DNA of 64,000 nucleotides, from sequence record MW341595. The stretch is one strand, 5' to 3'. Shown here piece by piece: positions 122 to 45,974 of the stretch. This stretch comes from Shigella phage Sfk20. The notes beneath the pieces are model-generated. The model saw only the letters and a program-made list of their open reading frames with translations. It was not told where the DNA came from and searched no databases. The position numbers and the translations under genes are program-made. The first letter of the stretch is position 1. Each line of letters begins with the position of its first letter.

Positions 122-1081
122 TCACTTCCACTGCATTTCGCATGCTAATTGAATGAAAAGATATGCTAAATGTAATTCCGTATTAGCCGCAATTCCATGA
201 TACTGGTTATTTTCACCAACAATTTCATACATACGAATAATACTTTGCGGAGTTACGCGTGTATAGATTTCTTCGGCAAGTTTACCAACGAACCACGAAT
301 AATCAGCTGCATATTTTGGCGCTAAAGCTCTGAGCTGTTTAACATCTTTATTTTTGAGAGATTCAAGAACATCATCAATAGCACCACGATCGTTAGTAAC
401 CAGTGATAAAATACCAGCATCCAAAACACCTTTAGATGAATAACTATCGAGCTCACCAATAGTTTTACGAAAATCAGGAAAATTCTTTTTAACCAAAGCT
501 GCTACAACTTTCATATCAGCTATAGCAATTCCTTCATGCTTGCAGATTTCAGTCAATCGACGAATCATCTGCTTCATCATTTCAATTTTATCTTCATCGG
601 TCGGTTGACCGAATGTAATAACTCGGCAGCGTGACTGAAGCGGTTTAATAATACCATCAATATTGTTAGCAGTAATAATAATACTGCAGTTTGAACTATA
701 AGCTTCCATAAAGGAACGAAGATGTCGCTGAGACTCTGCTAACCCTGAGCGGTCAAATTCATCAATAACGATTACTTTTTGACGACCATCAAATGAAGCT
801 GCACTAGCAAAATTAGTCAAAGGACCACGAACGAAATCAATTTTACAGTCTGATCCATTCACAAACATCATATCAGCATTTACATCATGACACAATGCTT
901 TTGCTACAGTTGTTTTACCTGTTCCTGGAGAAGGAGAATGAAGAATAATATGTGGAATTTTACCTTTACTTGTAATAGATTTAAAGGTTTCTTTATCAAA
1001 GGCGGGAAGAATACATTCATCGATAGTAGATGGACGATATTTCTGTTCAAGAATGTGTTCTTTTTCATTTACAGTAATCAT
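122..1081 (-). CDS. 44: clamp loader large subunit gp44 (AAA+ ATPase)
   Basis: Walker [11 protein letters not shown], Walker [12 protein letters not shown] motif; near-identical to recalled T4 gp44; true ATG at 1079-1081 (MITVNEKEH), the longer track ORF starts at a TTG. Confidence 0.93.
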
Positions 1082-1130: not shown

Positions 1131-1817
1131 TTAAAAGTCGTGGGTAGAATCAGCTTCAAGAGCTACTACATAATTCGCGTGTTCACCTTCAAATTTAGCA
1201 GCACCTTGTTTACCTTTTGCCCAGAGCAGAAGTTTATAATTTCCTGGTTGCATTTTCATATTTGCCATGTTGATAATGAAATTAAATGTATTTTCACCAT
1301 CATAATCACCAAGAGTCAAAGAATATTTAACACGGGTCAAAGCAGAATCTTCTACTTTATTAAAACCGTTAATTACGATTTTACCTTCTTTTACTGTGAT
1401 AGCAATTGTATCAATCTGCAGACCACGAGATACACGCAACAGCTGTTGAAGGTCTTCAGCTTTAATTTCAGTAACAACAGATGCTACCGGGAATGGAATT
1501 GGTTTATTAGGAGCAACTACTGTGCTCGGATCGGCTGCTGGCCAAAAAATTGTTGAACGAGCATCAGCAATTTTAATATTTCCATCTTCTGACTGGGAAA
1601 TTTCTGCATCGTCATTAACTAGGGACAGAATACCGAGAAAACCGTTCAAATCGTAAATTGCTACATCAAAATCAATAGTGTCAGAAATATTTGCTTCCGC
1701 ATAAGTTGTACCATTAACTGCGCGAGTCATAATAAATTGACCAGATTTAAGCATAATACCAGAGTTAATAGTAGCGAAATTTTTAAGCAGAGCAGTAGTA
1801 TCTTTAGACAGTTTCAT
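1131..1817 (-). CDS. 45: sliding clamp gp45
   Basis: 228 aa, sequence matches recalled T4 gp45; position between 44 and rpbA. Confidence 0.93.
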   Translation of the reverse strand: MKLSKDTTALLKNFATINSGIMLKSGQFIMTRAVNGTTYAEANISDTIDFDVAIYDLNGFLGILSLVNDDAEISQSEDGNIKIADARSTIFWPAADPSTVVAPNKPIPFPVASVVTEIKAEDLQQLLRVSRGLQIDTIAITVKEGKIVINGFNKVEDSALTRVKYSLTLGDYDGENTFNFIINMANMKMQPGNYKLLLWAKGKQGAAKFEGEHANYVVALEADSTHDF

Positions 1818-1872
1818 GTAATTTCCTTCAATTCAAATGAGATTTAATTTTATAACTAATTTAATAAAGCAA

Positions 1873-2262
1873 TTAACGATTAAAATCGGCAGCAATTGTT
1901 TCCGCGACAATTTGAGCAGCAACAATTAGACGTTCATCTGCATTACCGCAATAATCATCTTCAAGGCGTTCACCACATGAAGTCATAATAAATTTAGCAC
2001 CAGCATTTAAAGATTCTGTCGTATGTTTGCGCATTAGTTCAATCCATTTATTACTTACTTCACGATCGATAGCTTCATAATACGCATGACGAGCAGGTGC
2101 AGATTTAATTTTGTTCTGAATAACTTCCATCGCGTTATCAGAAAGAGACAAAACCCATGCTCGACGAATTTTATTTTGGTTTTGTGGATTTGAATCAGAA
2201 CGCACGTGTTTTGGCTGAATATCTTTTACATCAACAGTATAATTCACAGTAATTTTAGTCAT
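1873..2262 (-). CDS. rpbA: RNA polymerase binding protein RpbA
   Basis: 129 aa ORF in the T4 rpbA position between genes 45 and 46. Confidence 0.7.
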
Positions 2263-2271
2263 AATACACCT

Positions 2272-2460
2272 TTAGTCATAATAATCAGTAACAGTCCAAG
2301 CTTCATTTCTGTTGGACATTATTTTCGTATATTCTGCTTTAAATGCATTCTTAAGCATAGATTCAGTAACTATATGCTCTTCATTAGAAAAATTATTTCT
2401 CAGAATATATCGTTTTATTTCAGGAATAGTTAATAGATGCTGTCCAGTTGAATATTCCAT
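2272..2460 (-). CDS. hypothetical protein (T4 45.2 position)
   Basis: 62 aa ORF, tight spacing with neighbours. Confidence 0.5.
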   Translation of the reverse strand: MEYSTGQHLLTIPEIKRYILRNNFSNEEHIVTESMLKNAFKAEYTKIMSNRNEAWTVTDYYD

Positions 2461-2515: not shown

Positions 2516-4198
2516 TTAAACCATTACAGTAAATCGACCAACTTTCTTCATTTGAAGATGCTGACCATATGCTTGCGGGTCGTGGTCTCTATGTGAAATA
2601 ACAAAAACATTAGTATTTTTTAAACTATCTAAAATAGTTGAAATAGCTTTTACACCTTCAACATCAGTTGCTGAATCAAAAACTTCATCGAGAATTAGTG
2701 TGTTTATTTTAACACCTGAAACTTTTTCAGCAATATCACGCCAAGTAAATAGAAGAGCAATATCAATTCGTGCTTTTTCGCCTTGACTAAATGAAGCATA
2801 ACTAAAATCTTCGCGACCGCGGGATTTAATTGTCTCATTAAATTCTTCATCTAATGTAAACACATAATCCGCTTCCATTATTTTAAGATAATGGTTAATC
2901 TGCTTATTAAATAATGGAATGTACTTTTTAATAATAGCACCTTTAATACCAGAATCTTTGAGCATATCAGTCAAAATTCCTCTGTGGTATTTTTCCATTA
3001 CTAAATTAGTTTTTGTCTTAACAATTTTATCAAGTTCTTCTTGAAGCAGTGCTATTTCATCAGCATGGTCAATAAACTCAGATGATGCTTTTTCTATAGC
3101 TGCTTTAACTTTTTTAGCTTTATCTACAGTCGTGATTAGAGATTGCTTTTTATTGCGAATATCATTCGCCAACGTCTGTTGGGTTTTAATATTATCTCGG
3201 TATTCATCAACGAGAACTTTTAAATTATCACGATGTGTTGAAAGCTGTTCAAACGAATGCGTGCATTCAGAAACTTTATCTTTAATTTTAGAAACAACTT
3301 TATCGCCGGAACTTAATTGTGACAAACAGGTTGGACATAATCCACCTTCGTGATACATATTAATGACTTTATTATATGAGTCAATTTTTGATTTAATTAA
3401 AAATGCTTCTTGACCAATTTTATTAAATGCATCAGTCGGGTCTTCATCCAAAACAATATTAACTAATCTTTCATTAGCTTCTTCTATTTCCGATTTTAGC
3501 GTTCTAGCTTCTTTTGCCAAATCATCATACATATTCTGTAGACGAGTAAGGTTATCACCAGTTAATTTTTTCTGGCGTTCAACGTTATCATTATATATTT
3601 TAATTTGTTGGATAATACTATCTTTTTTAACATCAAGCACTTGGTTTTGTGAATTCAATTCACGTATTAGTGCTTTATTAAGCTTATCCATTTCAGCTAA
3701 TGTTCCTACCTCGAGCAGGTCTTCGACGAGTTTTCTTCTTGCAGGAGTGGATAGGCCCATAAAAGGGGTATATCCAGCCGTGCCGAGTACGACGATCTGT
3801 TTGAAACTGGCATATGACATTCCGATAAGCTGTTCAAATTCTGCTTGGAAATCTTTACTGCTGGCAGATTCATTAAGACGTGTACCGTTAACGGTGATTT
3901 CGAAAACGTTTGGTTTTTGTCCTCTTTTGATATAGTACTTTTTCTCATCATATTCCATCCACAGTTCAACTAAAAGTTCTTTCTTATTCGTGCTGTTTAT
4001 TAATTGACCTTTCTTTACATCACGAAATGGCTTGCCAAAAAGCCCAAATGTGATGGCTTCTAACATAGTAGACTTACCACCGCCATTTCGCCCAGTAATA
4101 AGAGTTTTTTGAACCTTATCTAGTTGAATGTCAATAGGATTTCCACCTACTGACATTATATTTTGATACCTAACTCGGTTTAGTTTAAAATTCTTCAC
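2516..4198 (-). CDS. 46: recombination endonuclease subunit gp46 (Rad50/SbcC-like ATPase)
   Basis: 560 aa; N-terminal Walker A GRNGGGKST, long central coiled coil with CPTC zinc hook, C-terminal signature/Walker B (LILDEVFD). Confidence 0.93.
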   Translation of the reverse strand: MKNFKLNRVRYQNIMSVGGNPIDIQLDKVQKTLITGRNGGGKSTMLEAITFGLFGKPFRDVKKGQLINSTNKKELLVELWMEYDEKKYYIKRGQKPNVFEITVNGTRLNESASSKDFQAEFEQLIGMSYASFKQIVVLGTAGYTPFMGLSTPARRKLVEDLLEVGTLAEMDKLNKALIRELNSQNQVLDVKKDSIIQQIKIYNDNVERQKKLTGDNLTRLQNMYDDLAKEARTLKSEIEEANERLVNIVLDEDPTDAFNKIGQEAFLIKSKIDSYNKVINMYHEGGLCPTCLSQLSSGDKVVSKIKDKVSECTHSFEQLSTHRDNLKVLVDEYRDNIKTQQTLANDIRNKKQSLITTVDKAKKVKAAIEKASSEFIDHADEIALLQEELDKIVKTKTNLVMEKYHRGILTDMLKDSGIKGAIIKKYIPLFNKQINHYLKIMEADYVFTLDEEFNETIKSRGREDFSYASFSQGEKARIDIALLFTWRDIAEKVSGVKINTLILDEVFDSATDVEGVKAISTILDSLKNTNVFVISHRDHDPQAYGQHLQMKKVGRFTVMV

Positions 4199-4645: not shown

Positions 4646-5661
4646 TGTGTTGCCTCTACATATAACTGATTTGCATATTGAATAAGTGCTTCGCGATCAG
4701 AATCAGTGATGTCTGGAATTGCATTAATGTATTCTTCCATCAATGTCTGGAGAGATTGAACTTCAACTTCTTCACTATCATCTGACTCGACAGAGTTATC
4801 AATCTTTGACACAACTCGTAATGAATGCACAACTTTTTCTAGTTCAGATTCGAACTTCGTTAGATTTTTGTCTACTTCAGTTACTATAACACGCACTGAT
4901 AGATTTGTAAAATCTTTATAGTCAATTTTTCCCTTAAATGGATATTGAATTCGACGATGCCAGGTAGTGTTGTTTGGAATAAATTCCATTCGTTCTGTTT
5001 CTGTATCAAACATCCAGAACCCACGAGGGTCATTCTCGTCACCCGCAGTTAGTGTCCATGGTGTCCCAATATATCTGACGTTAGCAGCCTCAGAGATAGT
5101 ATGGAAGTGACCAGACCACACCTCTTTATAAGTCTTAAGGAAATCAGGTTCAAGACCGTGAGATTTCATTCCTTTATAAAAATAAAATCCATTCAGTTCC
5201 CAGTGACCAACACAAAAAGAAGCAGATGAAGTTTTGATGTGTTCAAGAATTTCACCAGTATTTTCTTCGCACATCCAAGGAATTAAATCAATCAAACATC
5301 CGTCAAAATCTACTGTAGTAGGCTTATCATATACTTTAACATTAGGATATTTAGCCAAAAGCTCAGTAGAAGCATTTGGAGTTAAAGTATTTTTAAAGTG
5401 CATATCATGGTTTCCTACGACAGTATGTAGGGTAATACCAGCATCATCAAGCATTTGAACTATTTCACGAGCGAACTCCATAGTTTTATGTGTGATTGCT
5501 TTTCGCACATCAAAAATATCGCCGTATTGAATCCATGTAGTAATTCCGTTTTTCTTAGAATATTCTATTGCTTGTTTAATTCCATCCAACTGAATGGATT
5601 GAACCCACTCATCATCGGCTTTAACACCTAAATGCCAATCACCTAAATTTAAAATTTTCAT
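4642..5661 (-). CDS. 47: recombination nuclease gp47 (Mre11-like phosphoesterase)
   Basis: 339 aa; calcineurin-like motifs (LGDWHLG, GDIFD, GNHD, GHWE/GHFH). Confidence 0.93.
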   Translation of the reverse strand: MKILNLGDWHLGVKADDEWVQSIQLDGIKQAIEYSKKNGITTWIQYGDIFDVRKAITHKTMEFAREIVQMLDDAGITLHTVVGNHDMHFKNTLTPNASTELLAKYPNVKVYDKPTTVDFDGCLIDLIPWMCEENTGEILEHIKTSSASFCVGHWELNGFYFYKGMKSHGLEPDFLKTYKEVWSGHFHTISEAANVRYIGTPWTLTAGDENDPRGFWMFDTETERMEFIPNNTTWHRRIQYPFKGKIDYKDFTNLSVRVIVTEVDKNLTKFESELEKVVHSLRVVSKIDNSVESDDSEEVEVQSLQTLMEEYINAIPDITDSDREALIQYANQLYVEATQ

Positions 5662-5839: not shown

Positions 5840-7040
5840 ATTTTGTAATAATGTCAAACTGTTCTTTAAAGCAGAAGCTTGAATCTTGATGCTGATACAA
5901 AAATTCATAAGCTTTTTCGCGTTCACGGTCATAAAGATTTCGGTCAGATGACAGTTCTTTAATACGCTCAAATGTTGATTCCATGTCATTTTCATCAAAC
6001 CAAACGATACCGCTATCATGAGAAATTAACGGAGTATTATCAACACGGAATTTTAAATTTTCGCCAGTAGATTTCCAAAATACTGGAATTGTTCCACATG
6101 CACCAAGCTCGAGATGAGTATATTCTAAAGAACGTTGTAGATATTTTTTATCCAACTTACTCAGCTGATAACCAAATCCGGATTTACTCATGCGTTCAAG
6201 CATTTCGCTATTTACATAACGGTCAAGAATTTGCGTTGGCAAATTAGGAGCAATTTTAATTTGGTCTACTTGATGAAGACGATAATACTCATATGGAATT
6301 CCTTTTTCTTTAATAGGAATGAACGCAGGAGAACGTTCCAGACCTTCCATAATAGTACTTAGCCCAGCAGGTTTAAGATGTTTTTCGTGAAAATCAAACA
6401 TCTGATAAAAACCTTTCCATGTAGTCGTACGACCAATCCAACGGTTGACATTCATGTTAATTTCAGAAACATCTTTCCAGTAGGTTGATCGAACTTTCGC
6501 AATATCCATAGGAGGCTGAAAGTTGTATACGGTCGGTGCTTCTTCAATATCATCAAACAGAGAAACGGTTTCTGGATACCATTCTTTCATCAGAACTTTA
6601 TTAAAATCACCATTATCAGAATGACTAAAAATAACATCTGCTCGACGAACAGTTTCTTCTAATCCCAAATTTCGGCGCAAAGAAAGAGAAGAATGGTCAT
6701 GTTGATAAACTACAACACGAACCGAAGGTTTAATGTTATCAATAATTTTTTTATAGTTATTAATAGTGTCTTCTTCGACTGAAGTAGCAGGAACTGAATT
6801 GATAATTAGAATATCACAATCATTTACCAGCTTAAGTGTTTTATCGTATTCTTTTGCCAATAAAACCGGAATTGAAAATGATTTATAATCATGCGCGCAA
6901 TTACGGGTAAATGATTTATCTTTAGCATAAACCAAAGTTACTTCATGACCATTTTTAATAAACCAATCACGCTGCTCGAGAGAAAATTTAGTTACGCCGC
7001 AACCTTCAAGACCTCGAGCCATAAAAATGCATACTTTCAT
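5838..7040 (-). CDS. a-gt: DNA alpha-glucosyltransferase
   Basis: 400 aa ORF in the a-gt position after gene 47; sequence consistent with recalled T4 alpha-glucosyltransferase. Confidence 0.85.
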   Translation of the reverse strand: MKVCIFMARGLEGCGVTKFSLEQRDWFIKNGHEVTLVYAKDKSFTRNCAHDYKSFSIPVLLAKEYDKTLKLVNDCDILIINSVPATSVEEDTINNYKKIIDNIKPSVRVVVYQHDHSSLSLRRNLGLEETVRRADVIFSHSDNGDFNKVLMKEWYPETVSLFDDIEEAPTVYNFQPPMDIAKVRSTYWKDVSEINMNVNRWIGRTTTWKGFYQMFDFHEKHLKPAGLSTIMEGLERSPAFIPIKEKGIPYEYYRLHQVDQIKIAPNLPTQILDRYVNSEMLERMSKSGFGYQLSKLDKKYLQRSLEYTHLELGACGTIPVFWKSTGENLKFRVDNTPLISHDSGIVWFDENDMESTFERIKELSSDRNLYDREREKAYEFLYQHQDSSFCFKEQFDIITK

Positions 7041-7090
7041 TTAATATCCTCATTGTTTTGGTTTATTTTACCAAAAATTTATAAAGCAAT

Positions 7091-9892: not shown

Positions 9893-10148
9893 TGTAAACT
9901 GATTTTTTCAACTTTCTTACTTCACCACGTAATTGGCGATTTAGCTCATCTTTAACTTCTGAATCAATGCCTTTCATTCTACGCCATTTATCTGAGCGAA
10001 AAATGTTTTCAACCATATCTTTATGACTTACACCATCAGGAGCTTTACGCTTTCCGAAATAGTCATAATCACGAACTTTCAAGTCTTTACGACGATACGT
10101 TTTACCCATGGAGTTTAATTTCCTTAGCAACTGAACTAAATACAGCAC
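9816..10148 (-). CDS. hypothetical basic protein
   Basis: K/R-rich ORF; likely true start at internal Met (MGKTYRRKD). Confidence 0.45.
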   Translation of the reverse strand: MLYLVQLLRKLNSMGKTYRRKDLKVRDYDYFGKRKAPDGVSHKDMVENIFRSDKWRRMKGIDSEVKDELNRQLRGEVRKLKKSVYIDDDFDYNTSQRVAKRKSNECYRYS

Positions 10149-10304
10149 GATCGCAAATCATCTGTTTATTCCATTTAAGTACAGTATAATGAACATCTAG
10201 ATCATCTACTGCTGTAACAATAACAATATGTCCGTTAACACGATAATACTGATCTCTTTTAATCTCTTTATCAACCATATCAAATCCTCAAAGGCAATTC
10301 ATAT

Positions 10305-10340
10305 GTTAATAATACCACAGTTTGAACTTGTTGTAAACAA
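10305..10340 (-). promoter_or_regulatory. T4-type early (sigma70) promoter
   Basis: Minus-strand GTTTAC -35 with TATTAT-like -10 about 18 nt downstream and A/T-rich UP region; upstream 30 bp near-identical to elements at 42241 and 42571. Confidence 0.5.
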
Positions 10341-10411
10341 CTTTGTGAAAATTATTTTAGGGAATGATAAGAAGGGAACGATAGTTAGAATGGTAATATA
10401 CAGAATGTGAG

Positions 10412-10433
10412 AAAGAAAGGCCCAGAGGGCCCA
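10412..10433 (-). terminator. rho-independent terminator after nrdH
   Basis: GGGCCC-UCU-GGGCC hairpin followed by UUUCUUUCU. Confidence 0.6.
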
Positions 10434-10435
10434 TC

Positions 10436-10744
10436 TTAGTCTTCTATGATATCTCTATCATATCCAAGTGAAATGAGAGTTTCTTTGAAGTGTTTAATGT
10501 TCTTTTGTCTAGAATCATTGATGAAAATGACTGGATAACGAATGTTAAGAGATGTGAATCCAGCGCGTTTAGCAAGAGATACAATCAGTGGACGATCATA
10601 CTCAATCTTACCATTATTTGTAAGAACTTTATAGAAAGTAAAAGGAGCATTGAGCTCCTTTAGAAGTTTTGTAACTGATTGACATCCAGGACAACGACCT
10701 ACTTCATCTGGAATTCCATAGACTTCAATCTTGTTCTGTTTCAC
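10436..10744 (-). CDS. nrdH: glutaredoxin-like protein (NrdH position)
   Basis: 102 aa with CPGC redox motif, upstream of nrdG/nrdD operon end. Confidence 0.7.
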   Translation of the reverse strand: MKQNKIEVYGIPDEVGRCPGCQSVTKLLKELNAPFTFYKVLTNNGKIEYDRPLIVSLAKRAGFTSLNIRYPVIFINDSRQKNIKHFKETLISLGYDRDIIED

Positions 10745-10746
10745 AA

Positions 10747-10959
10747 CTATTCCTTACTAAGAGCAGAATTCAGCTTATTAGTAATTTTATCCAGACGCTC
10801 ATTGAACTCGCTAGAAGACAGTCCTTTTTCTGGAGAAATCAAACTAATCACGAAAAATATAGCAATAAAAGGAATAAGGAAAATAGCTCCAACTGCCATA
10901 AACAGAAAGAATGTTACAGTTGTAAGAAAATCAGCTAAACCTTTGCGAAATTTATACAT
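10747..10959 (-). CDS. hypothetical small membrane protein
   Basis: 70 aa, long hydrophobic segment TVTFFLFMAVGAIFLIPFIAIFFVISLI. Confidence 0.5.
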   Translation of the reverse strand: MYKFRKGLADFLTTVTFFLFMAVGAIFLIPFIAIFFVISLISPEKGLSSSEFNERLDKITNKLNSALSKE

Positions 10960-11074
10960 ATTTTACCCTTAATTGATTAACCAAGCATTGATAAGCACTA
11001 AACTATATTGCGAATAAAATTCTGGACCAAAATGAAAAATCATATCATTTATAGTGTCCATAATATAATTCAAT

Positions 11075-11545
11075 TTAATCATGTTTCCACACCCCATCGG
11101 TATTTGACCAAAGTCGCTGATTATCTGATCCTCGCCACAGCTTTTTAGTCGGAAGATTTTTCTCATACTTCCCATCAATAATAACATCAACATATTTAAG
11201 CATTTCTAGTTGTTTAATATCTTCAAATTTATATCCTGTCCACAACCAAATGCTTTTATTGGGATAAAGATTTTTTACTGTTTGAACCACAGAGTGAACA
11301 ACATCTCGGTTATCAGGATAGAGAGGGTCTCCTCCAGTTATAGTTAATCCTTCTATATAATCGTTATTCAAACATTCAATTAATTGTTCCAGTGTTTCAC
11401 CAGTGAATGGAACGCCATTTCTAGCATTCCATGTTGATTTATTATAACACCCTTCGCATTTATGCAAACAGCCTGTGACGAAAAGAACGACCCTGCATCC
11501 AGGGCCATTCACAAAATCGCATGGATAAAATCTATCATAATTCAT
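11075..11545 (-). CDS. nrdG: anaerobic ribonucleotide reductase activating protein NrdG (radical SAM)
   Basis: 156 aa; CLHKCEGC (Cx3Cx2C) radical-SAM cluster motif. Confidence 0.9.
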   Translation of the reverse strand: MNYDRFYPCDFVNGPGCRVVLFVTGCLHKCEGCYNKSTWNARNGVPFTGETLEQLIECLNNDYIEGLTITGGDPLYPDNRDVVHSVVQTVKNLYPNKSIWLWTGYKFEDIKQLEMLKYVDVIIDGKYEKNLPTKKLWRGSDNQRLWSNTDGVWKHD

Positions 11546-13359
11546 TGGTGTTTAACCCTATGCATGATTTCTTTATTTTTGCCGAGATTAAATCCGCGTT
11601 CGTTCGGATTTCCTAAATAACCGCAAGTTCTTCTTATTGTGTTCATCTTTTTAGGATCAGTTTCTCCACAAATAGAACAAACAAACCCGTTTTCAGTAGG
11701 AGTCATTTCATGTGTACTTCCGCATGTAAAACACTTATCTACTGGCATATTAACGCCAAAATAATCTAAATGCTGTGCAGCATAATCCCATACAGCCTCA
11801 AGACCTTTTAGGTTATTTTTCATATCAGGAAGTTCAACATAAGAAATGTGACCACCTGTCGCAATGAAATGATATGGAGCTTCGCGGGAAATCTTTTCAA
11901 ATGGAGTAATATTTTCTTCTACTGAAACATGGAAACTATTAGTGTACCAGCCTTTATCAGTAACATCCTTTACACTTCCATATTTTTCAGTATCAAGTTT
12001 ACAGAAGCGATAGCACAGGTTTTCAGCAGGTGTAGAATACAAACTAAAAGCAAAACCGGTTCTTTCAGTCCACTGCTTAAGACGAGCATTCATTTTAGTT
12101 AAAATTTCCTGTCCAATATCACGACCGACAAGAATATTCAATTCGTGAATACCAATGTATCCCAAAGACACTGAACTTCTACCGTTTTTAAATAACTCAA
12201 TTATGTCGTCATCAGGTTTAAGACGAACCCCGAATGCACCTTCTTGGTAAAGAATAGGAGCAACAGTCGCTTTAACTCCTTTTAAAGAATTAATTCTACA
12301 CATCAAAGCTTCAAAGCATAAATCCATTCGCTCATTGAACAATTCGGCAAATTTTTGTTCATTGAACTGTGTTCCAATATAAGAATCTAACGCAATGCGA
12401 GGAAGATTCAGTGTTACAACACCAAGATTATTACGTCCATCAAGAATTTCATTACCAGTCGAATCTTTCCATACGCTTAAGAAACTACGGCAACCCATTG
12501 GAGAAACAGGAATAGATGAACCAGTGATAGCTTTATTGTTCTTAGCTGAAATAATATCAGGATACATTCTTTTGCTTGCACACTCTAGAGCAAGCTGCTT
12601 AATATCATAGTTCGGATCATCTTTATAAAGATTAACACCTTCTTCAACGAACATAACAAGCTTAGGGAAAATAGGAGTTATCCCATCGCGACCAAGACCT
12701 TTAATACGATTTTTCAGAATTGCTTTCTGAATCATTCGTTCAGTCCAGTCAGTTCCCGTACCAAATGTAATTGTTACAAAAGGCGTTTGTCCGTTTGAAC
12801 TAAAAAGAGTATTTACTTCATATTCATAAGCTTGGAATGCATCGTATACGTCTTTTTCTGTTTTAGATTGAGCATAATTCAACGCATCAGCGATTTGCCA
12901 TTTTTCTGCGTCCTCAATATGTTTTGCATAGGTGCGTTTAACATAAGGAGAAAGTACTTTATCTACATTCGCAAAAGTCGTTCCACCATATTGGTGAGAA
13001 GCAACCTGTGCAGTAATTTGTGCCATAATTGCAGTAGCAACGCCGATTGATTTAGGAGTTTCAATCTGTGCATTACCGAGCTTAAATCCGTTTTCAAGCA
13101 TTCCTTTTAAATCTACTAAACAGCAATTAGTAAATGGAAGAGCAGGGGAATAATCAATATCATGGAAATGGATAATTCCGCTTTCATGCGCTTTCATAAT
13201 AAAAGACGGGACCATATTTTTGGCAATGTGTTTAGACACAATACCAGCCATAAGGTCCCGTTGAGTTGGAAAAACACGAGAATCTTTATTAGCATTCTCG
13301 TTCAAAAGGTCTTTATTAGTTTTATGAATCAATCCTTCAATTTCTTTTTCAATTGTCAT
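11542..13359 (-). CDS. nrdD: anaerobic ribonucleoside-triphosphate reductase NrdD (class III, glycyl radical)
   Basis: 605 aa uninterrupted ORF; C-terminal CxxC...CxxC zinc site and glycyl-radical motif RRTCGYLG. Confidence 0.93.
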   Translation of the reverse strand: MTIEKEIEGLIHKTNKDLLNENANKDSRVFPTQRDLMAGIVSKHIAKNMVPSFIMKAHESGIIHFHDIDYSPALPFTNCCLVDLKGMLENGFKLGNAQIETPKSIGVATAIMAQITAQVASHQYGGTTFANVDKVLSPYVKRTYAKHIEDAEKWQIADALNYAQSKTEKDVYDAFQAYEYEVNTLFSSNGQTPFVTITFGTGTDWTERMIQKAILKNRIKGLGRDGITPIFPKLVMFVEEGVNLYKDDPNYDIKQLALECASKRMYPDIISAKNNKAITGSSIPVSPMGCRSFLSVWKDSTGNEILDGRNNLGVVTLNLPRIALDSYIGTQFNEQKFAELFNERMDLCFEALMCRINSLKGVKATVAPILYQEGAFGVRLKPDDDIIELFKNGRSSVSLGYIGIHELNILVGRDIGQEILTKMNARLKQWTERTGFAFSLYSTPAENLCYRFCKLDTEKYGSVKDVTDKGWYTNSFHVSVEENITPFEKISREAPYHFIATGGHISYVELPDMKNNLKGLEAVWDYAAQHLDYFGVNMPVDKCFTCGSTHEMTPTENGFVCSICGETDPKKMNTIRRTCGYLGNPNERGFNLGKNKEIMHRVKHQ

Positions 13360-13829
13360 TTTAAACTCTTTCTAAGCTGCTTCTTAAATGAAGCTATTAA
13401 TTGTGTTTTAGTGTCAGATTCATTATATTCAAATCCTCTTTGAAGCATCTCAGCCATCATTTCCTCTTTTCCTAAACGAGAAAATTCCTTTGATTTATCT
13501 CCAACGAAGTTAGGGTGAATATTATTTTGGGTGTAATCGGATTTTAAATAAGTAAGTAAATTTTCTAACCATTCAAGATAATCAACGCCTTGTCCCTTTA
13601 AGCCAGAACGATTAAATTTGTGCTTCATTTGACCTTCCGCTGCATTGCAAAGATTACAGAGCAATCCACGCACCTTTCCTGCTTTTGGTCCATTTAATTC
13701 ATGGTCATGGTCAAGGTGATTAGCTTGAACATCAGGATTTAGTTCTCGTTGGCAAATTAAGCATTTACCATTTTGTGCATTATAAAATTTTTGTTTTTCT
13801 TCTTTGTATAATTTGCCAGTCAATAACAT
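13356..13829 (-). CDS. 49: endonuclease VII (Holliday junction resolvase) gp49
   Basis: 157 aa; matches recalled T4 endo VII including zinc-binding CLICQ...CNLCN and HLDHDH motif. Confidence 0.93.
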   Translation of the reverse strand: MLLTGKLYKEEKQKFYNAQNGKCLICQRELNPDVQANHLDHDHELNGPKAGKVRGLLCNLCNAAEGQMKHKFNRSGLKGQGVDYLEWLENLLTYLKSDYTQNNIHPNFVGDKSKEFSRLGKEEMMAEMLQRGFEYNESDTKTQLIASFKKQLRKSLK

Positions 13830-13870
13830 AATAAAACCCTTACCTTGAATAGATAAGGGTATTTATTATT
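13830..13870 (-). promoter_or_regulatory. hairpin covering the gene 49 translation initiation region
   Basis: ACCCUUA...UAAGGGU inverted repeat (13837-13862) immediately upstream of the gene 49 ATG; AATAAATA late-promoter-like octamer overlaps it. Confidence 0.4.
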
Positions 13871-13871
13871 T

Positions 13872-14048
13872 TCAAGTATTGTAAAACATTCGATGCAATC
13901 GCTTATATTGCCGAATCATCTTTTTAGTAGGACGAGAATAAGTTCCTACACAAGTGGTCATATTAGAGTCGGTATGACTTCCTTTAATAAAAAGTTTCCA
14001 AACCTTACCACCATTTAACTTTTCAGTATAAATTAATTCGGTTTTCAT
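13872..14048 (-). CDS. hypothetical small protein (58 aa, below ORF-track cutoff)
   Basis: ATG overlaps upstream stop (TAATG); translated by eye as MKTELIYTEKLNGGKVWKLFIKGSHTDSNMTTCVGTYSRPTKKMIRQYKRLHRMFYNT. Confidence 0.3.
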   Translation of the reverse strand: MKTELIYTEKLNGGKVWKLFIKGSHTDSNMTTCVGTYSRPTKKMIRQYKRLHRMFYNT

Positions 14049-14512
14049 TAAAACGCTCGGTCAGAAAAAGAATTTTGAGTTTCAAGCCATTCAATATATT
14101 CTGCCGCAGCTTGCATCAAATTTCCTTCATAACCATCGTTATTTTCTTGTGCAGCTAATTTAGCTAATGCGTATGAAATACGTTCACCTTGAAAAGCGGC
14201 TTCAGGTTTATGAATAACTTGATCAACTCGTTCTACGACCTCTTCAATTTCGCCATTTTCTACTGATTCAGTATTCCATAAGCACCAATAGGCAGTTGGC
14301 TTATCGTAGATGTTAATAATCTTTCCACCAGAAAGTTCAATTTCAATAATTCCAGTATCAGGTTCTATATCATCTTCACATTCTTTTACAAGTTCACGAA
14401 CTTTAAAGACAGTACCTGCACCAAGTTCCGGCCAGTAATTACACAGCTCTTTATCAGCACGATTAATTTTAAACCACTTATCTACTGCAATCATATCCCA
14501 TCTCCATATCAA
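14048..14512 (-). CDS. hypothetical protein (in the position of T4 pin, protease inhibitor)
   Basis: 154 aa acidic ORF between nrdC side and gene 49; identity by position only. Confidence 0.45.
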   Translation of the reverse strand: MIWRWDMIAVDKWFKINRADKELCNYWPELGAGTVFKVRELVKECEDDIEPDTGIIEIELSGGKIINIYDKPTAYWCLWNTESVENGEIEEVVERVDQVIHKPEAAFQGERISYALAKLAAQENNDGYEGNLMQAAAEYIEWLETQNSFSDRAF

Positions 14513-14617
14513 TTAAGTCGTTTATCGTTGGTTCATTATATACTGTTTCTTCATCAGTGTAAACCGGTTCTTCCGGCTCTGGCTCTACAGTTTCCCATCT
14601 AGCCGCCCACCAAGGTT

Positions 14618-14938
14618 TTATAGCGTAATCCATTCTCGTACTGTCTGAGTTACTACACGTTCACGGGGCTCGACTAGTTCAACAGTCGGAACTGCATAAT
14701 ACCAGTCAGAATGGTAAGAACCTGAGCGAGTTTCATTTACTGAAACATGTACATTGTGTTTTGGACTAAAATAAACACACTGGCGATATTGGCATTTACC
14801 ATCTTGTACCCAATCTTCTATTTCGATAGGTTTAAGATAATCCGAAAAATCGAAATCATAATTTTCTGAAAATGCATCATGGTCTTCGATGATTTCACTC
14901 AGAACTGCATCAACATCTAATTTATTTTCAATATTCAT
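14618..14938 (-). CDS. hypothetical protein
   Basis: 106 aa ORF. Confidence 0.5.
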   Translation of the reverse strand: MNIENKLDVDAVLSEIIEDHDAFSENYDFDFSDYLKPIEIEDWVQDGKCQYRQCVYFSPKHNVHVSVNETRSGSYHSDWYYAVPTVELVEPRERVVTQTVREWITL

Positions 14939-14948
14939 TTTTCACCAA

Positions 14949-15158
14949 TTAATTTCGCAATTTATTAAGTTCTTCATAATCAATCCAGGATTCTAGTCCT
15001 GATGGCAAATCAGATTCAATTTCCCAAAGAAGTTCTTCAATTTTCTGAAGACGATCCAGTTCTTCAGCTGGAATAGTAACCATTGATGGAGCTCTTGATA
15101 CACTAATATCGTAAATCATATTTACCCCAGTTTGACCATACAATCGCCATATTTCCAT
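14949..15158 (-). CDS. hypothetical protein
   Basis: 69 aa ORF. Confidence 0.45.
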   Translation of the reverse strand: MEIWRLYGQTGVNMIYDISVSRAPSMVTIPAEELDRLQKIEELLWEIESDLPSGLESWIDYEELNKLRN

Positions 15159-22595: not shown

Positions 22596-23608
22596 CATTT
22601 ATAATAACTTCGGTGGTTTTCAAGATAAACCCTCTCAAGGAAGTCATCCCAGAAACCCATGTCTACTTTTTGCTGCATACCGTTCTTAGAAGCTTCAATG
22701 GATGCTGCTTCTACTTGATCGACCACATCTTCCAAAAACTCTTGAACAGTTTTAAATGGATGTTTACCCAACTTCACGTCGAGAATAAATGGAGCGTCTT
22801 GAAGTGGATAGACTAAGTCACCAGTTTTGTAAATTTCCAATAGTTGGAGCCCACCACGACAAGCATGACTCAGAGCTTTCCAGTCAATGCCCTCATTCGC
22901 TTCAGCCTTACGAGCACGTTCGCCGTATTCAGCATCAAGTTTATTCAAAGATTGCTTAAGCTCGATAAGAGAAAGTGTTGTTTGATATTTACGACCCAAC
23001 ACAGTGTAGAACGTTTGTGGACCTGTTTTCTCATGATTATGGAATACCCATTCACAGAATTCGTTCTCTGGAAGACGATGCTTAATATCTTCAACTTTAG
23101 TTCGACGCTGCTTAATGGAACCGTCTTCTTGGTAATCAACCCATTGCTCAGGGATTTGATTAACTACTTTCAATACATCACGTAATGCGGCCAAACGAGA
23201 ACCCTTAACACCGTATTTAGAAGCTTGCTTGCGAACATATCCTAAGTAGGATTTCATGTTAGTCGTATAAAAACGAGAACGATTGTCTTGAATAAACTTC
23301 CATACATCAGGCAAATCAGATTTAATTACTAGTTCCGGTGGAGTGTGGAGCATATCCAATGCTACAGTTTCACCATCTGCTGCTAATTTAAAGAAATACT
23401 TAAGACTGTATAGTTCATGGTCAATATCATCTTTAGTGTTTTTAGATGATGTGTTGTTAGTGTTTTTACTCATATGCTCTTTAACATTTCCGATAAGAAT
23501 ATCACGAGCAGGAGGAACAAAGATTTCTTTAAAATCTACATCAGATTCTGGAGTAGAAGTTCCATAAAGATGACTACCAAAATAGCTTTTCATTACTGTT
23601 TTCATCAT
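22595..23608 (-). CDS. nucleotidyltransferase-fold protein (pol-beta superfamily)
   Basis: N-terminal FGSHLYGTSTPESDVDF = hG[GS]...DxD minimal NTase signature; 337 aa; stop overlaps the ATPase ORF region. Confidence 0.55.
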   Translation of the reverse strand: MMKTVMKSYFGSHLYGTSTPESDVDFKEIFVPPARDILIGNVKEHMSKNTNNTSSKNTKDDIDHELYSLKYFFKLAADGETVALDMLHTPPELVIKSDLPDVWKFIQDNRSRFYTTNMKSYLGYVRKQASKYGVKGSRLAALRDVLKVVNQIPEQWVDYQEDGSIKQRRTKVEDIKHRLPENEFCEWVFHNHEKTGPQTFYTVLGRKYQTTLSLIELKQSLNKLDAEYGERARKAEANEGIDWKALSHACRGGLQLLEIYKTGDLVYPLQDAPFILDVKLGKHPFKTVQEFLEDVVDQVEAASIEASKNGMQQKVDMGFWDDFLERVYLENHRSYYK

Positions 23609-24066
23609 TCAGCCTTATATTCAATAACAGGACATACTTTAGCTTTACGCACTTTTAAAAATTCGACGATAATAGATTTCTTGGGTTGAATAGGAGGTAA
23701 ACCTTTATACGCCCTATCAATATTTTCTACATGTAAAGCATAATCCTTTTTCCATTTATAATCTTTATATTTTTCATGCAGTTGTGCAGGAATAACAAAT
23801 GAACCAATAATAAGTAAAACAAGCAAAATGGCAAGTATAAATGCTGATGGAATAAGAGTCCATAAACTACCAAAAATAAACCATTTCTGCATGATTTCTG
23901 CACAGATAATAGTTAGACCTGTGAGTATAGTACATCCGAAAAAAGAAACGAAAAATGTAGGGATAACAATAGACCAAAAGTATGCGCACAGTGTCTTAGG
24001 TCGTTTCCATTCATCATTAAACAGTTTGAATAATTTATAGTGCCAAGAGTTTTCATTAATAATCAT
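23605..24066 (-). CDS. hypothetical multi-pass membrane protein
   Basis: 153 aa; three or four hydrophobic helices. Confidence 0.5.
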   Translation of the reverse strand: MIINENSWHYKLFKLFNDEWKRPKTLCAYFWSIVIPTFFVSFFGCTILTGLTIICAEIMQKWFIFGSLWTLIPSAFILAILLVLLIIGSFVIPAQLHEKYKDYKWKKDYALHVENIDRAYKGLPPIQPKKSIIVEFLKVRKAKVCPVIEYKAE

Positions 24067-24068
24067 AA

Positions 24069-24590
24069 TTATCCTTTCATTGAAGGTGTAACAGTTGTTA
24101 AATACTTAATCATAGCTTCAGCTTCTGATTTTGATAATGAAATTTCTCCATTGTTTTGACGAATAGAAATAAAATCCGGATGACGGTCACCACCAGCTTT
24201 TAAAACACACATATAAGTATCAGTTTCATCTTCAATATCTGAAATAATTGAAGCAGTTCCGCATGAATGTGGTTTTTGATAAATCAATGCAGCTTTTCTT
24301 CCACCGTTTGACTGTTCATAAACTTTTAACACATCAAACAAATCGCTTCTTTTATCAATAGCTAAGATGTTGTTTTCATCTTCAATGTTAAATCCTTCGG
24401 ATACTTCATAAAGTGTCACCCATAAATCACCTATATCGATAGTAGCATTTCCTTTTCCACGACTTTCAAGAATGTGACAAATTTTCTTAATTTCATCATA
24501 ACTCATTTTAATAATATCATCTCCTTGACTAAGGAAGATGTCATTTTTAAATTCAACGCGAATTAAACCACTTCCACTTGAAATAAACAT
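24069..24590 (-). CDS. hypothetical protein (paralogue of next ORF)
   Basis: 173 aa; C-terminus SEAEAMIKYLTTVTPSMKG resembles the neighbouring ORF. Confidence 0.5.
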   Translation of the reverse strand: MFISSGSGLIRVEFKNDIFLSQGDDIIKMSYDEIKKICHILESRGKGNATIDIGDLWVTLYEVSEGFNIEDENNILAIDKRSDLFDVLKVYEQSNGGRKAALIYQKPHSCGTASIISDIEDETDTYMCVLKAGGDRHPDFISIRQNNGEISLSKSEAEAMIKYLTTVTPSMKG

Positions 24591-37980: not shown

Positions 37981-38544
37981 TTATTTGCCTAGTTTAGTTA
38001 TTATAGCTTCGGCAGCAGCTTTTAGCTTAGATGCGGTGTTAATACGATTTTTAATTTCAGTATACGCATCGCCAAGAACATCAAGGCTATCAGAATAAAC
38101 ACTTACACTATTGCGTTCGCTATTTGAAATAGAACCTTTAGTTTTACGATCAAAATCGGTGTACACGTCTTGAAGATCGCGGGCTGCCTTCTTTGCATCA
38201 TCCAATGCATCAAGAGCTTTATTCAAAGCATTAACGTATTTTTTAGTGTCGAACATATTCTTAGAAATTTTAACAGGTGCACGTTCAGGAGTAGCTAATA
38301 CAGATTTAGGAACCTGAGCGCCAGATGCCAATTTCTTAGAAATTTTGAAAAATGCTTTATTGAATTTATTTTCTTGACTCATTGTAAAAGAACTATTATC
38401 GATGTTGTACATTTCAATAGCTTTAGCTTTCCACTTAAGAAAATCGCCGCGGTCTTTTGGGTCCAATTGGAAGAATACTTTAGTAAGATCTGCTTCAGAT
38501 GGTAATTTTGCTGCTTCGGTTAAAAATTCGGCATAGGTTTTCAT
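37981..38544 (-). CDS. candidate internal (capsid-packaged) protein with capsid targeting sequence
   Basis: N-terminus MKTYAEFLTEA (CTS consensus with LTE-A cleavage site); own terminator hairpin downstream. Confidence 0.6.
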   Translation of the reverse strand: MKTYAEFLTEAAKLPSEADLTKVFFQLDPKDRGDFLKWKAKAIEMYNIDNSSFTMSQENKFNKAFFKISKKLASGAQVPKSVLATPERAPVKISKNMFDTKKYVNALNKALDALDDAKKAARDLQDVYTDFDRKTKGSISNSERNSVSVYSDSLDVLGDAYTEIKNRINTASKLKAAAEAIITKLGK

Positions 38545-38670: not shown

Positions 38671-39144
38671 TTATTTGATTTGTTTAGCAGACCAAATGCG
38701 GTCTTTAATAATTTTTTGAATGTCTTCAACATACTCAAGAGAGTGAACATGTGGATTATCTTTGAAACTATAAGCACGGGCTAACTTTTGGCCTTCGGTT
38801 TTGATTACTAAAAGCTCTTTAAGGATAGCTTCATATTTAGAGATAATTCCTTTAACAATATTTTTTTCTTGTGCAACTTTAGGATCTGCTTTAGGAGCAG
38901 GTTTACCCGAAGCCTTTGCAAAAGCAGCGCCAGTAGCAACTAGACTTTTCCAGGCCATACTAACTGCATTTCCCGTAAATCCTTCTGCTTTCATGTCGCG
39001 AGCAAATTGGAATCGTGATTCGTCAGAAGCATCTTTATAGGAATATTTACCCGCTGCAATGGCTGCTTTTGCGACAGCTTGAATTTCGGTGCTAGATGCT
39101 TCATTTAACACCGCTTCATTTAAAAATTGAGCATATGATTTCAT
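38671..39144 (-). CDS. candidate internal (capsid-packaged) protein with capsid targeting sequence
   Basis: N-terminus MKSYAQFLNEA (CTS-like with LNE-A cleavage site); TATAAATA late promoter upstream and terminator hairpin downstream. Confidence 0.6.
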   Translation of the reverse strand: MKSYAQFLNEAVLNEASSTEIQAVAKAAIAAGKYSYKDASDESRFQFARDMKAEGFTGNAVSMAWKSLVATGAAFAKASGKPAPKADPKVAQEKNIVKGIISKYEAILKELLVIKTEGQKLARAYSFKDNPHVHSLEYVEDIQKIIKDRIWSAKQIK

Positions 39145-39895: not shown

Positions 39896-39971
39896 TGGTC
39901 GAGGCAGTAGGGATCGAACCTACGACCTAGGACTTAGAAGGTCCTTGCTCTTCCTTCTGAGCTATGCCTCG
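39896..39971 (-). tRNA. tRNA-Arg (anticodon UCU)
   Basis: 76 nt cloverleaf; acceptor CGAGGCA/UGCCUCG, anticodon stem AGGAC/GUCCU, loop CUUCUAA, T-arm GUAGG-UUCGAUC-CCUAC, CCA encoded. Confidence 0.9.
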
Positions 39972-39975
39972 GATT

Positions 39976-40050
39976 TGGCGGACGTGATAGGATTCGAACC
40001 TATAACCAATCGCTTAACAGGCGATCGCTCTGCCATTGAGCTACACATCC
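39976..40050 (-). tRNA. tRNA-Asn (anticodon GUU)
   Basis: 75 nt; acceptor GGAUGUG/CACGUCC, D-arm GCUC-AAUGGCA-GAGC, anticodon stem AUCGC/GCGAU, loop CUGUUAA, T-arm AUAGG-UUCGAAU-CCUAU, CCA encoded. Confidence 0.88.
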
Positions 40051-40054
40051 AAAT

Positions 40055-40141
40055 TGGTGGGGAGTGATGGAGTCGAACCACCCGAGTCGCAATGACAATG
40101 GATTTACAGTCCACACCGCTACCTCTACGGGATAACTCCCC
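40055..40141 (-). tRNA. tRNA-Tyr (anticodon GUA), long variable arm
   Basis: 87 nt; acceptor GGGGAGU/ACUCCCC, anticodon stem-loop GUGGA-CUGUAAA-UCCAU, ~15 nt variable arm, T-arm GGUGG-UUCGACU-CCAUC, CCA encoded. Confidence 0.85.
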
Positions 40142-40150
40142 AAATTAATT

Positions 40151-40225
40151 TGGTGGCCCTGGGTGGAATTGAACCACCATCTGGCGATTATGAGTCGCTT
40201 GCTTGAACCTTCCAGCTACAGGGCC
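40151..40225 (-). tRNA. tRNA with anticodon CAU (Ile2/Met type; T4 tRNA-Ile equivalent)
   Basis: 75 nt; acceptor GGCCCUG/CAGGGCC, anticodon loop CUCAUAA, T-arm GGUGG-UUCAAUU-CCACC, CCA encoded. Confidence 0.85.
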
Positions 40226-40226
40226 T

Positions 40227-40302
40227 TGGTGCTGATTGACGGAATCGAACCGCCGACCTTCTCATTACAAGTGAGTTGCTCTACCTACTGAGCTAAATCA
40301 GC
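40227..40302 (-). tRNA. tRNA-Thr (anticodon UGU)
   Basis: 76 nt; acceptor GCUGAUU/AAUCAGC, D-arm GCUC-AGUAGGUA-GAGC, anticodon loop CUUGUAA, CCA encoded. Confidence 0.88.
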
Positions 40303-40307
40303 AAAAC

Positions 40308-40397
40308 TGGCGGAGGCGATAGGATTTGAACCTATGAGTCGCCGGAGCGACTGCCGGTTTTCAAGACCGGTGCATTAAACCACTCTGCCACGCCTCC
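40308..40397 (-). tRNA. tRNA-Ser (anticodon UGA), long variable arm
   Basis: 90 nt; acceptor GGAGGCG/CGCCUCC, anticodon stem-loop CCGGU-CUUGAAA-ACCGG, long variable arm, T-arm AUAGG-UUCAAAU-CCUAU, CCA encoded. Confidence 0.88.
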
Positions 40398-40399
40398 AG

Positions 40400-40473
40400 T
40401 CTCCATACAAGGATTTGAACCTTGGACCTCCTGATCCCAAATCAGGCGCTCTACCAAACTGAGCTACACGGAG
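40400..40473 (-). tRNA. tRNA-Pro (anticodon UGG)
   Basis: 74 nt; acceptor CUCCGUG/UAUGGAG (two G-U pairs), anticodon stem-loop CCUGA-UUUGGGA-UCAGG, T-arm CAAGG-UUCAAAU-CCUUG, CCA not encoded. Confidence 0.85.
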
Positions 40474-40483
40474 TAAATTAAAT

Positions 40484-40557
<74 letters not shown>

Positions 40558-40562
40558 AAATT

Positions 40563-40649
40563 TGGTGCGAGAAGTGGGACTCGAACCCACAAGGAAATCA
40601 TTCCGCAGCATTTTAAGTGCTGTGCCTTTACCAATTTGACCATTCTCGC
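40563..40649 (-). tRNA. tRNA-Leu (anticodon UAA), long variable arm
   Basis: 87 nt; acceptor GCGAGAA/UUCUCGC, anticodon stem-loop CAGCA-CUUAAAA-UGCUG, T-arm GUGGG-UUCGAGU-CCCAC, CCA encoded. Confidence 0.88.
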
Positions 40650-40650
40650 G

Positions 40651-40723
40651 CTGGGAATAAAGGACTCGAACCTTTGCATCCTGGAATCAAAATCCAGTGC
40701 CTTACCAACTTGGCTAATTCCCA
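40651..40723 (-). tRNA. tRNA-Gln (anticodon UUG)
   Basis: 73 nt; acceptor UGGGAAU/AUUCCCA, anticodon stem-loop CUGGA-UUUUGAU-UCCAG, T-arm AAAGG-UUCGAGU-CCUUU, CCA not encoded. Confidence 0.85.
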
Positions 40724-40809: not shown

Positions 40810-41334
40810 TTAAAGCAAATTAAACATTTTAACGGTCGGCAAAACAATTTCTTCTTCTATATAAGAGTATTTAACACTCTCAACTACACGCAAAAAATCA
40901 TAATCATAATACTCAGAAGCATTACCTAAAATATTAATAAGTCCTTCAAGCACTTTATTACCATTCACAAAGAATAAGTCAAATACACGTTCTTCATCTT
41001 CTTCAGATTTATTACCAAGATCAACTTCTATGCGAAAGACCTTTTTAATGAATTCTGGATAAAGCTGGTCTGAGAACAGTCCTTCAACCAAGTATTCATA
41101 AATAAAAAGAGATTGCTCGCTGAACAAACCATTACCACAATAGCGCTCAATTTTAGTACTAGAATATCTGCTTTTAAACTTCTTTAAAAGATACTGAAAT
41201 TGTAAGATTTCATGCTCTTCTACGCCAAACAGTGTTTTAGTTTTATAGTTGTCACCATCATTTTCCCAGGTAGTGACATCAATTACGTAGCCCTGCGGAA
41301 TTGTAGTACCTAAACAAATATTCATTTTCACCAC
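40810..41334 (-). CDS. hypothetical protein
   Basis: 174 aa acidic ORF just upstream of tRNA array. Confidence 0.5.
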   Translation of the reverse strand: MVKMNICLGTTIPQGYVIDVTTWENDGDNYKTKTLFGVEEHEILQFQYLLKKFKSRYSSTKIERYCGNGLFSEQSLFIYEYLVEGLFSDQLYPEFIKKVFRIEVDLGNKSEEDEERVFDLFFVNGNKVLEGLINILGNASEYYDYDFLRVVESVKYSYIEEEIVLPTVKMFNLL

Positions 41335-42588: not shown

Positions 42589-43285
<697 letters not shown>

Positions 43286-43286
<1 letters not shown>

Positions 43287-44697: not shown

Positions 44698-45522
44698 TTA
44701 GATATTTGACCAGACTTTGTTTGCAGAGAAACGTTTTCCTTTTGAAACGAACTGCTGAAGTGGCATTAACACAACGTTCGCCCAGTCTTTCGGGGCGATT
44801 TCAACAAGGCTACCCATAATATTACCGGGTATATATGCCTTAATCATTTGGTCTGCACCCCTAAATCCTTTCACTTGACTCCAATCAATTTTTAATTTCG
44901 TTTTATTAGTAATAGTAGGTGTATTTGAATATTGCTTTAAAAGCTCTTCTAAAAATTGCTGACGAGCTTTAGGTGGAATATAGTGCAAGTTCAACCCGTA
45001 CATTAAATTATGTTTACCTAAACCAAGGTAAATTATCAAAGGAAATTTATCCCAGTAAGGAAGAGTTTCCTTGTGTTTAGCATCATAAGCAAAAGCATAT
45101 ATTCGTCCCGGCTGCGGGCGAACAACCTTATGTCCTTTTACTTGCTTAATAGTTTCAGCAAACCACTTTCTGGTTTTATTATTAATTGCTGCACCTTCAT
45201 TACGAATTTTATCACGCAATGTTTGCCTGAATGAATTTATCATAAGCAGTTGTCTTTCTTGCTTATTGAGTTTATTCATTGGTTTTGATTCAAGCTTTTG
45301 AATCTTTTCAGCTGTTTTAATTCCTGAAGCATATTTTGACATTGCTGAAGTAAACGTAGAGTATTTGATTCCTCTTTCTTCGGCAAATTGCTTTCCTGTC
45401 ATTCCTTTTGCTTTGGCCTTTCTGTATTCAAGACCTATCTGAATCCATTTCTTTTCGTTTAATGATTGCTTAACCTTTGGAACTTGGGGAGTGCTTTCAT
45501 TAATTATTTGAAAAATAGCCAT
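44698..45522 (-). CDS. 2: DNA end protector protein gp2
   Basis: 274 aa basic protein between genes 3 and 4. Confidence 0.85.
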
Positions 45523-45974
45523 TATGCCCCCTTAAAGCCAAGAGCTCTTAATCCATCTTCTGTTAGAATTCTAAATTTTATTCCACGCTTTTCAGCTAAA
45601 GCTTGAGCTGCTTTCCATTTGTCAGTATTAACGGAATATGTATAAATTTCATTCATAAATCTTTTCTTCGCTGCAGTTGTTAGATGTGCTGGTTTAACTG
45701 GTGGTTGTGTTTCTTTTTTAGGCTTTATTTCAATAAAAAATTCTTGTCCAGAAGAATCTTTCATCCAAATATCCATGAAGTATCTACGTTTTTTCCCTTC
45801 TGCATTACAAAAATAAGGAATTACTGCTGTTTCACTACCCCATGCAATAATTTCTGGATTTTTATCTAACCATTCAAAAAAGAATTTTTCCCAATTTGAT
45901 CTATACGTAATTTTTTTAGGGTCACCTCTATATTTTGATATATTTTTAGGAACCCATTTTCCAGAATATGCCAT
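45522..45974 (-). CDS. 4: head completion protein gp4
   Basis: 150 aa; divergent late promoters in the 4/53 spacer. Confidence 0.88.

Follow-up and report, generated by a model that had tools for sequence, protein, structure and literature searches.

An uninterrupted nrdD gene and T4 homing loci without endonucleases in a 64-kb stretch of Shigella phage Sfk20

The nrdD gene and its intron insertion site

The DNA analyzed here, referred to as the window, is a stretch of 64,000 nucleotides from Shigella phage Sfk20 (MW341595), i.e., 64 kb out of a genome of roughly 166 kb. It includes gene 49, nrdD and nrdG, in the order found in T4 and in a genomic setting also shared with T4 (Table 1). Gene 49, upstream, and nrdG, downstream, each share a 4-nt ATGA overlap with nrdD. 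The earlier note on this DNA, made from the letters, had described nrdD as a single uninterrupted ORF of 605 codons. This description is borne out by the ORF itself and by its alignment with the T4 gene, as follows.

The Pfam NRDD profile (PF13597) matches the window NrdD over its full length (E=1.3e-171). Spliced T4 NrdD and the window protein are identical at 599 of 605 residues, and the nucleotide identity to the spliced T4 CDS is 95.5%. A C-terminal RxCGY glycyl-radical motif and a Cys4 zinc site, as in T4 NrdD, are what we take to be the hallmarks of the family. Both are legible in the translation, the former as RRTCGYLG and the latter as CFTCG...CSICG. The neighbors are likewise unremarkable. 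The NrdG translation contains the motif CLHKCEGC, and the window gp49 is 99.4% identical to that of T4.

Table 1. Features of the nrdD region and of the six T4 homing-endonuclease positions in the window
Feature	Position	Strand	State in the window	Evidence
nrdG (radical-SAM activase)	11075..11545	(-)	start overlaps nrdD stop by 4 nt, 11542..11545	ORF list; aligns to T4 nrdG; Fer4_12 4.2e-49
nrdD (class III anaerobic ribonucleotide reductase large subunit)	11542..13359	(-)	single ORF, 605 codons + stop, 1818 nt	
gene 49, endonuclease VII	13356..13829	(-)		Pfam Endonuclease_7 8.4e-22, Endonuc-dimeris 1.5e-33
Equivalent of the T4/SP1-type intron insertion site	12821..12822	(-)	codon 180, phase 1; unoccupied	
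Junction flanks, 60 nt per side	12762..12881	(-)	T2/T6-type intron-less haplotype	
mobB slot	7031..7056	(-)	between a-gt and a-gt.2; about 24 nt vs 861 nt in T4	blastn breakpoints at T4 37817 and 38679
mobC slot	11542..11545	(-)	empty; nrdD/nrdG overlap	blastn segments overlap across T4 42916 to 43515
I-TevII intron slot	12821..12822	(-)	nothing inserted	
mobD slot	23609..24572	(-)	filled by two non-nuclease ORFs	blastn breakpoints, Pfam, PHROGs
segB slot	39896..40225	(-)	tRNA-Arg, Asn, Tyr, Met; segB and tRNA-Ile absent	ARAGORN; blastn gap at T4 71168 to 72014
segC (and 5.3) slot	48849..48854	(+)	empty; between 5.1 and 5.4	blastn breakpoints at T4 80217 and 80775

In T4, nrdD (sunY) is split by a 1033-nt group I intron that encodes I-TevII, and mobC accompanies the gene; the window has none of the three. 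A MAFFT alignment with the T4 gene, which the earlier note had proposed as the way to locate the intron site, contains one gap, of exactly 1033 nt, corresponding to the T4 intron (44815..45847 of the T4 record). On the sense strand of the window the junction reads ...GCTTATGAAT | ATGAAGTAAAT..., with the break between bases 12822 and 12821. The same point is occupied by a second type of intron, 1045 nt long, in the SP1/F2-type phages (MT682709, NC_054913). These phages are about 95% identical to the window, and their intron carries an ORF 56% identical to I-TevII, whereas the window site is vacant.

The sequence flanking the junction is that of intron-less T-even phages. Over the 120 nt the window and T2 agree at 119 positions; the junction is continuous and matches a known intron-less allele, as is expected of an empty homing site. 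The sole change is a silent C-to-T at +17, a T that is absent from both T2 and T6. The haplotype is common to T2, T6, JE01, and Ec_MI-02. The nrdD genes of T2 (MH751506) and T6 (AY262137) are uninterrupted and 605 codons long, like that of the window, and the nucleotide identity between the window and T2 over this gene is 96.4%. The T2 genes nrdD and nrdG overlap with no endonuclease gene between them, as they do here, whereas T6 has segH at that place.

The T4 exons differ from the window flanks at position -2 and at eight silent positions in +8..+38, and T2 and T6 display the same cluster of differences from T4 3′ of the site. It is there that silent differences separating T4 from the intron-less alleles are densest: the first 60 nt hold 8, whereas 60 nt hold on average 2.7 in the window and 1.5 in T2. 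At exon position -2, the base is G (GAG|T) in the two intron-bearing haplotypes and A (GAA|T) in all five of the intron-less alleles compared. In the P1 helix given by RNAalifold, exon AUGAGU pairs with the intron guide GCUCAU, with the customary U-G pair at the splice site. The -2 G of the intron-bearing alleles takes part in this pairing; the window, with GAAT, is without it. Co-conversion of flanking sequence accompanies homing (PMC2988022), and the silent-change cluster fits better with a co-conversion tract on the T4 side.

Introns and homing endonucleases in the window

In a megablast search with window positions 10000..15000, 1084 phage records were matched, all T4-like, the closest being Shigella phage ESh16 (98.4%) and other Tequatrovirus isolates. 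Local blastn indicates that the window is collinear with T4 (NC_000866) from 30786 to 95954, i.e., from gene 44 to gene 15, at 88–98% identity. According to the T4 annotation, the homing-endonuclease genes of this interval are six, namely mobB, mobC, I-TevII, mobD, segB, and segC. The six enzymes are also listed in Table 1 of PMC2988022. The blastn breakpoints coincide exactly with each of the six genes.

The contents of the six positions vary. The last 4 nt of nrdD are also the first 4 of nrdG, so that the mobC slot is empty. In other phages the nrdD/nrdG slot is occupied by mobC (T4), segH (T6), or another endonuclease gene (Ec_MI-02). The mobD slot holds ORFs at 23605..24066 and 24069..24590, whose products are a membrane protein of 153 aa and a T4_y05I-like protein of 173 aa. 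At the segB slot there are tRNA genes. A Met-Tyr-Asn-Arg tRNA set without segB is the arrangement of the T2L/RB1/RB3 type, in which the preferred SegB cleavage site sits in tRNA-Asn (PMC2330249). The presence of this type of cluster shows a "recipient" state at a second homing locus, outside nrdD. The earlier note had stated that segB and mobD have no endonuclease counterpart here and had called the genome an intron- and endonuclease-poor T-even allele in these regions. Both statements stand, and the latter extends to all six T4 positions.

The tRNA cluster as a whole spans 39896..40723 (-) and has ten genes versus eight in T4, in the order Arg, Asn, Tyr, Met, Thr, Ser, Pro, Gly, Leu, Gln.

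A group I intron is absent from the window. An Rfam search of the slice 11400..13500 at a permissive E<=10 gave no Intron_gpI (RF00028), and in a control the T4 nrdD intron was recovered at 105 bits. Whole-window Rfam scans, at the gathering threshold and at E<=5, also gave no group I intron, and these negatives are not relied on. The reason lies in the SP1-type intron (MT682709), likewise used as a control. In a 1.3-kb slice its score was 70.6 bits, above the gathering score of 50, and it was missed by both a 6-kb scan at the gathering threshold and a 50-kb E-value scan. Since a genuine 70.6-bit intron was missed, Rfam negatives over long stretches do not exclude introns. The whole-window scans were therefore replaced by a covariance search without filters, with controls, and by the collinearity argument.

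The covariance model was built from the cores of the T4 and SP1 nrdD introns and run with filters off. On T4 DNA that had not been used in training, it found the td intron at 67.2 and 35.9 bits and the nrdB intron at 46.2 bits, with noise of at most 7.6 bits. Over the whole 64 kb of the window, no score exceeded 11.5 bits, a value reached antisense to gene 46. At 0 or 1 mismatch the window contains no copy of the conserved core motif GAAGATATAGTC; at 2 mismatches there are 6 matches versus 7.2 expected, with no excess over chance. In addition, any intron should be visible as extra DNA compared with T4, and the unaligned stretches hold only continuous ORFs or tRNAs.

The search for endonucleases used both sequence and profile comparisons. 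Thirteen T-even homing-endonuclease queries were compared with the window by tblastn, including the six T4 enzymes, I-TevI, I-TevIII, mobE, the SP1 homologue of I-TevII, the Ec_MI-02 endonuclease, and T6 SegH. They gave no real match and no remnants in the window, with nothing better than E=1 for I-TevII and its SP1 homologue. For the Pfam scan, all 288 stop-to-stop frames of at least 55 aa were run in two batches, each spiked with the six T4 endonucleases. The scan reports the 25 most frequently matched families, among which the spike-ins force the endonuclease families to appear. At E<=0.1 the counts over these frames equal those of the spike-ins alone: HNH 3, HNH_5 2, GIY-YIG 2, SegE_GIY-YIG 3, NUMOD1 2, NUMOD3 3, and I-HmuI_NUMOD-like 2. 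For families that no spike-in matches, such as HNH_3 and LAGLIDADG, exclusion rests on T4 collinearity and on direct scans of the window-specific ORFs; in the latter, nuclease domains are absent by both Pfam and PHROGs.

Several candidates were examined and rejected. The weak tblastn matches all fall within conserved T4 genes and were judged to be due to chance; for example, a mobC match (E=0.02) at 5347..5505 lies inside gene 47, and segB and segC matches (E about 0.2) lie inside gene 6. The Ec_MI-02 endonuclease has a 13-aa match at 11507..11545, which is the NrdG N-terminus. Regular expressions for GIY...YIG or HNH-like spacing gave two spurious matches, gp49 and mobD.1.

A group I intron or a degenerate endonuclease ORF, either of which the earlier note had named as capable of overturning it, was thus looked for and not found. 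Its claim that the 64 kb contain no GIY-YIG or HNH endonuclease ORF holds for homing endonucleases; for HNH, it needs a footnote for gp49. The gp49 endonuclease VII is a Holliday-junction resolvase with the Endo VII fold and no homing enzyme, and it is the sole Endo VII or His-Me-type nuclease within the window. Per Pfam, the Endonuclease_7 family presumably belongs to the His-Me finger clan, alongside HNH. Beyond the 64 kb, the phage may carry endonuclease genes.

Status of the intron-less allele

Intron mobility first came to light in the late 1980s through the finding that T-even phages differ in which of the T4 introns they carry. The frequency of split and intact nrdD was determined with a 400-nt query centered on the junction, where a gene was counted as intact if one place covered at least 80% of the query and as split if two places matched. 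This query matched 1325 phage records, of which 1065 are uninterrupted and 71 match at two places (about 70 split). By intron type, 25 records have the T4-type intron and 44 the SP1/F2-type, a sum that agrees with the split count. If only the 681 records with a junction identity of 90% or more are considered, roughly 10% have the split form.

The T4 endonuclease genes of the interval are each found in just 25–126 records; for the free-standing ones, counted at 80% coverage or more, the numbers are 26 for mobB, 32 for mobC, 47 for mobD, 126 for segB, and 38 for segC. T4, with 15 homing endonucleases, is an outlier, and most T-even genomes have few (PMC2988022). Split ribonucleotide reductase genes have been reported in 16 of 128 phage genomes that carry such genes (PMC3653736). 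Intron-less nrdD is the majority state among T4 relatives, as is already known, and T4 is the exception.

Very probably, then, the window belongs to a Tequatrovirus with the common intron-less nrdD, and the T4 intron site is here a vacant homing site with the T2/T6 haplotype. Such an nrdD would be transcribed and translated directly, with no need for splicing, and would be coupled to gene 49 and nrdG through the ATGA overlaps. The product is expected to be a normal glycyl-radical class III ribonucleotide reductase. The remaining five homing-endonuclease slots are either vacant or filled with unrelated cargo.

The 120-nt junction segment is the presumed target of I-TevII. I-TevII presumably cleaves 13–15 nt 3′ of the insertion point. 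If an intron-bearing phage infected the same cell, the enzyme would be expected to cut the window allele a short way 3′ of that point, and repair of the break would bring in the intron together with flanking silent changes, including the -2 A-to-G change that completes P1. We infer that homing must co-convert the -2 base because an A at that position would mismatch in P1. Susceptibility of the window allele to I-TevII is likewise a prediction from the sequence.

A different history is that the allele formerly carried an intron and lost it by precise deletion, e.g., when a spliced copy recombined with the gene. Homing elements are proposed to go through cycles in which introns are gained and lost (PMC2988022), and a precise loss would leave a continuous ORF like the one aligned here. 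However, loss from either of the known intron-bearing alleles should retain the co-converted flanks, and the window has the flanks of the intron-less T2/T6 haplotype: its -2 base is A, and the silent changes of the T4 and SP1 types at +8..+38 are all missing. The few flanks compared suggest a place for the allele outside the intron-bearing clades, without intron-type silent markers. We consider precise loss very unlikely. A recombinational replacement by DNA from an intron-less phage is a separate matter; it cannot be told apart from a never-invaded state.

Two further proposals concern the site itself. In the milder of them, the haplotype would be partly refractory to the intron, either through the +17 T in the presumed cleavage region or through an A-C mismatch that the -2 A would cause in P1 if it were not co-converted. 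The chance of this is smaller again than that of precise loss. If it were true, homing endonucleases would be missing from the 64 kb because homing elements were selected against, and not because the phage had never been exposed to them. The stronger proposal is that the silent differences, or the private +17 T, protect the site from I-TevII, such that absence of the intron is a selected immunity. The density of differences from T4 directly 3′ of the site, in what is presumably the I-TevII cutting region, would favor this, as would the lack of the +17 change in T2 and T6. Yet the same difference cluster occurs in T2 and T6, and T2 reportedly served as the recipient when mobility of the nrdD intron was demonstrated. 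GIY-YIG endonucleases tolerate many substitutions in their target sites, and the +17 change is a lone silent transition. The demonstration of mobility is recorded in a review (PMC2988022). A fully resistant site is accordingly the more improbable of the two proposals.

An artefact, in which an intron or an endonuclease gene vanished through collapse or removal during assembly or annotation, is a negligible possibility, and nothing in its favor was found. At least 1065 independent phage records have the same uninterrupted junction, the 400 nt tested are 100% identical in the closest record, ESh16, and the reading frame and the overlaps with gene 49 and nrdG are intact.

The practical value lies in annotation, where nrdD is to be entered as a single CDS. 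At the six homing loci the phage may be termed a T2-like "recipient," a description that predicts exclusion of these markers in co-infection with T4. As a discovery this carries small weight, the state being ordinary and long known among T-even phages. Two side results may be more useful, namely, the failure of long Rfam scans to find a genuine intron and the existence of a second lineage of I-TevII-like introns (44 records).

Other elements in Sfk20 and related phages

The second nrdD intron lineage is represented by the 1045-nt intron at 2824..3870 (-) of the Escherichia phage SP1 segment and is also found in 236Ecol005PP, where the I-TevII-like intron ORF is annotated as two pieces. The SP1-type intron has a 42-nt identical stretch in common with the T4 td intron. 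The location concerned in the long-scan Rfam miss is 3669..3904 (-) of the SP1 segment.

In Escherichia phage Ec_MI-02, a close relative, a free-standing gene for a 279-aa endonuclease lies between nrdG and nrdD (1537..2376 (-) of its segment). The protein has a NUMOD-like C-terminus, and over its first 13 residues it matches the N-terminus of NrdG exactly. The products of T4 mobB, mobC, mobD, and mobE also begin with MNY.

Other differences among the phages lie away from the homing loci. At 10737..10759, between nrdH and the 55.8 homologue, the window is without an insertion of about 300 bases that some close relatives carry. In JE01 and 236Ecol005PP this insertion (about 740..1060 in their segments) includes an ORF of roughly 100 aa. 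The KNP and UFV phages, which also gave two-part matches, probably have it as well. Between e.8 and the rnaC/rnaD homologues, the window has a 1.2-kb stretch absent from T4, with tandem paralogous ORFs of 187 and 157 aa at 37981..38544 and 38671..39144 (-), both matching phrog_2280 (function unknown). A 174-aa ORF at 40810..41334 (-), inserted relative to T4 between tRNA-Gln and trna.2, matches phrog_2290 and has no Pfam match. Finally, in the stretch that replaces T4 49.3, a 69-aa ORF at 14949..15158 (-) matches phrog_3402, "antitoxin from a toxin-antitoxin system" (E=1.2e-39).
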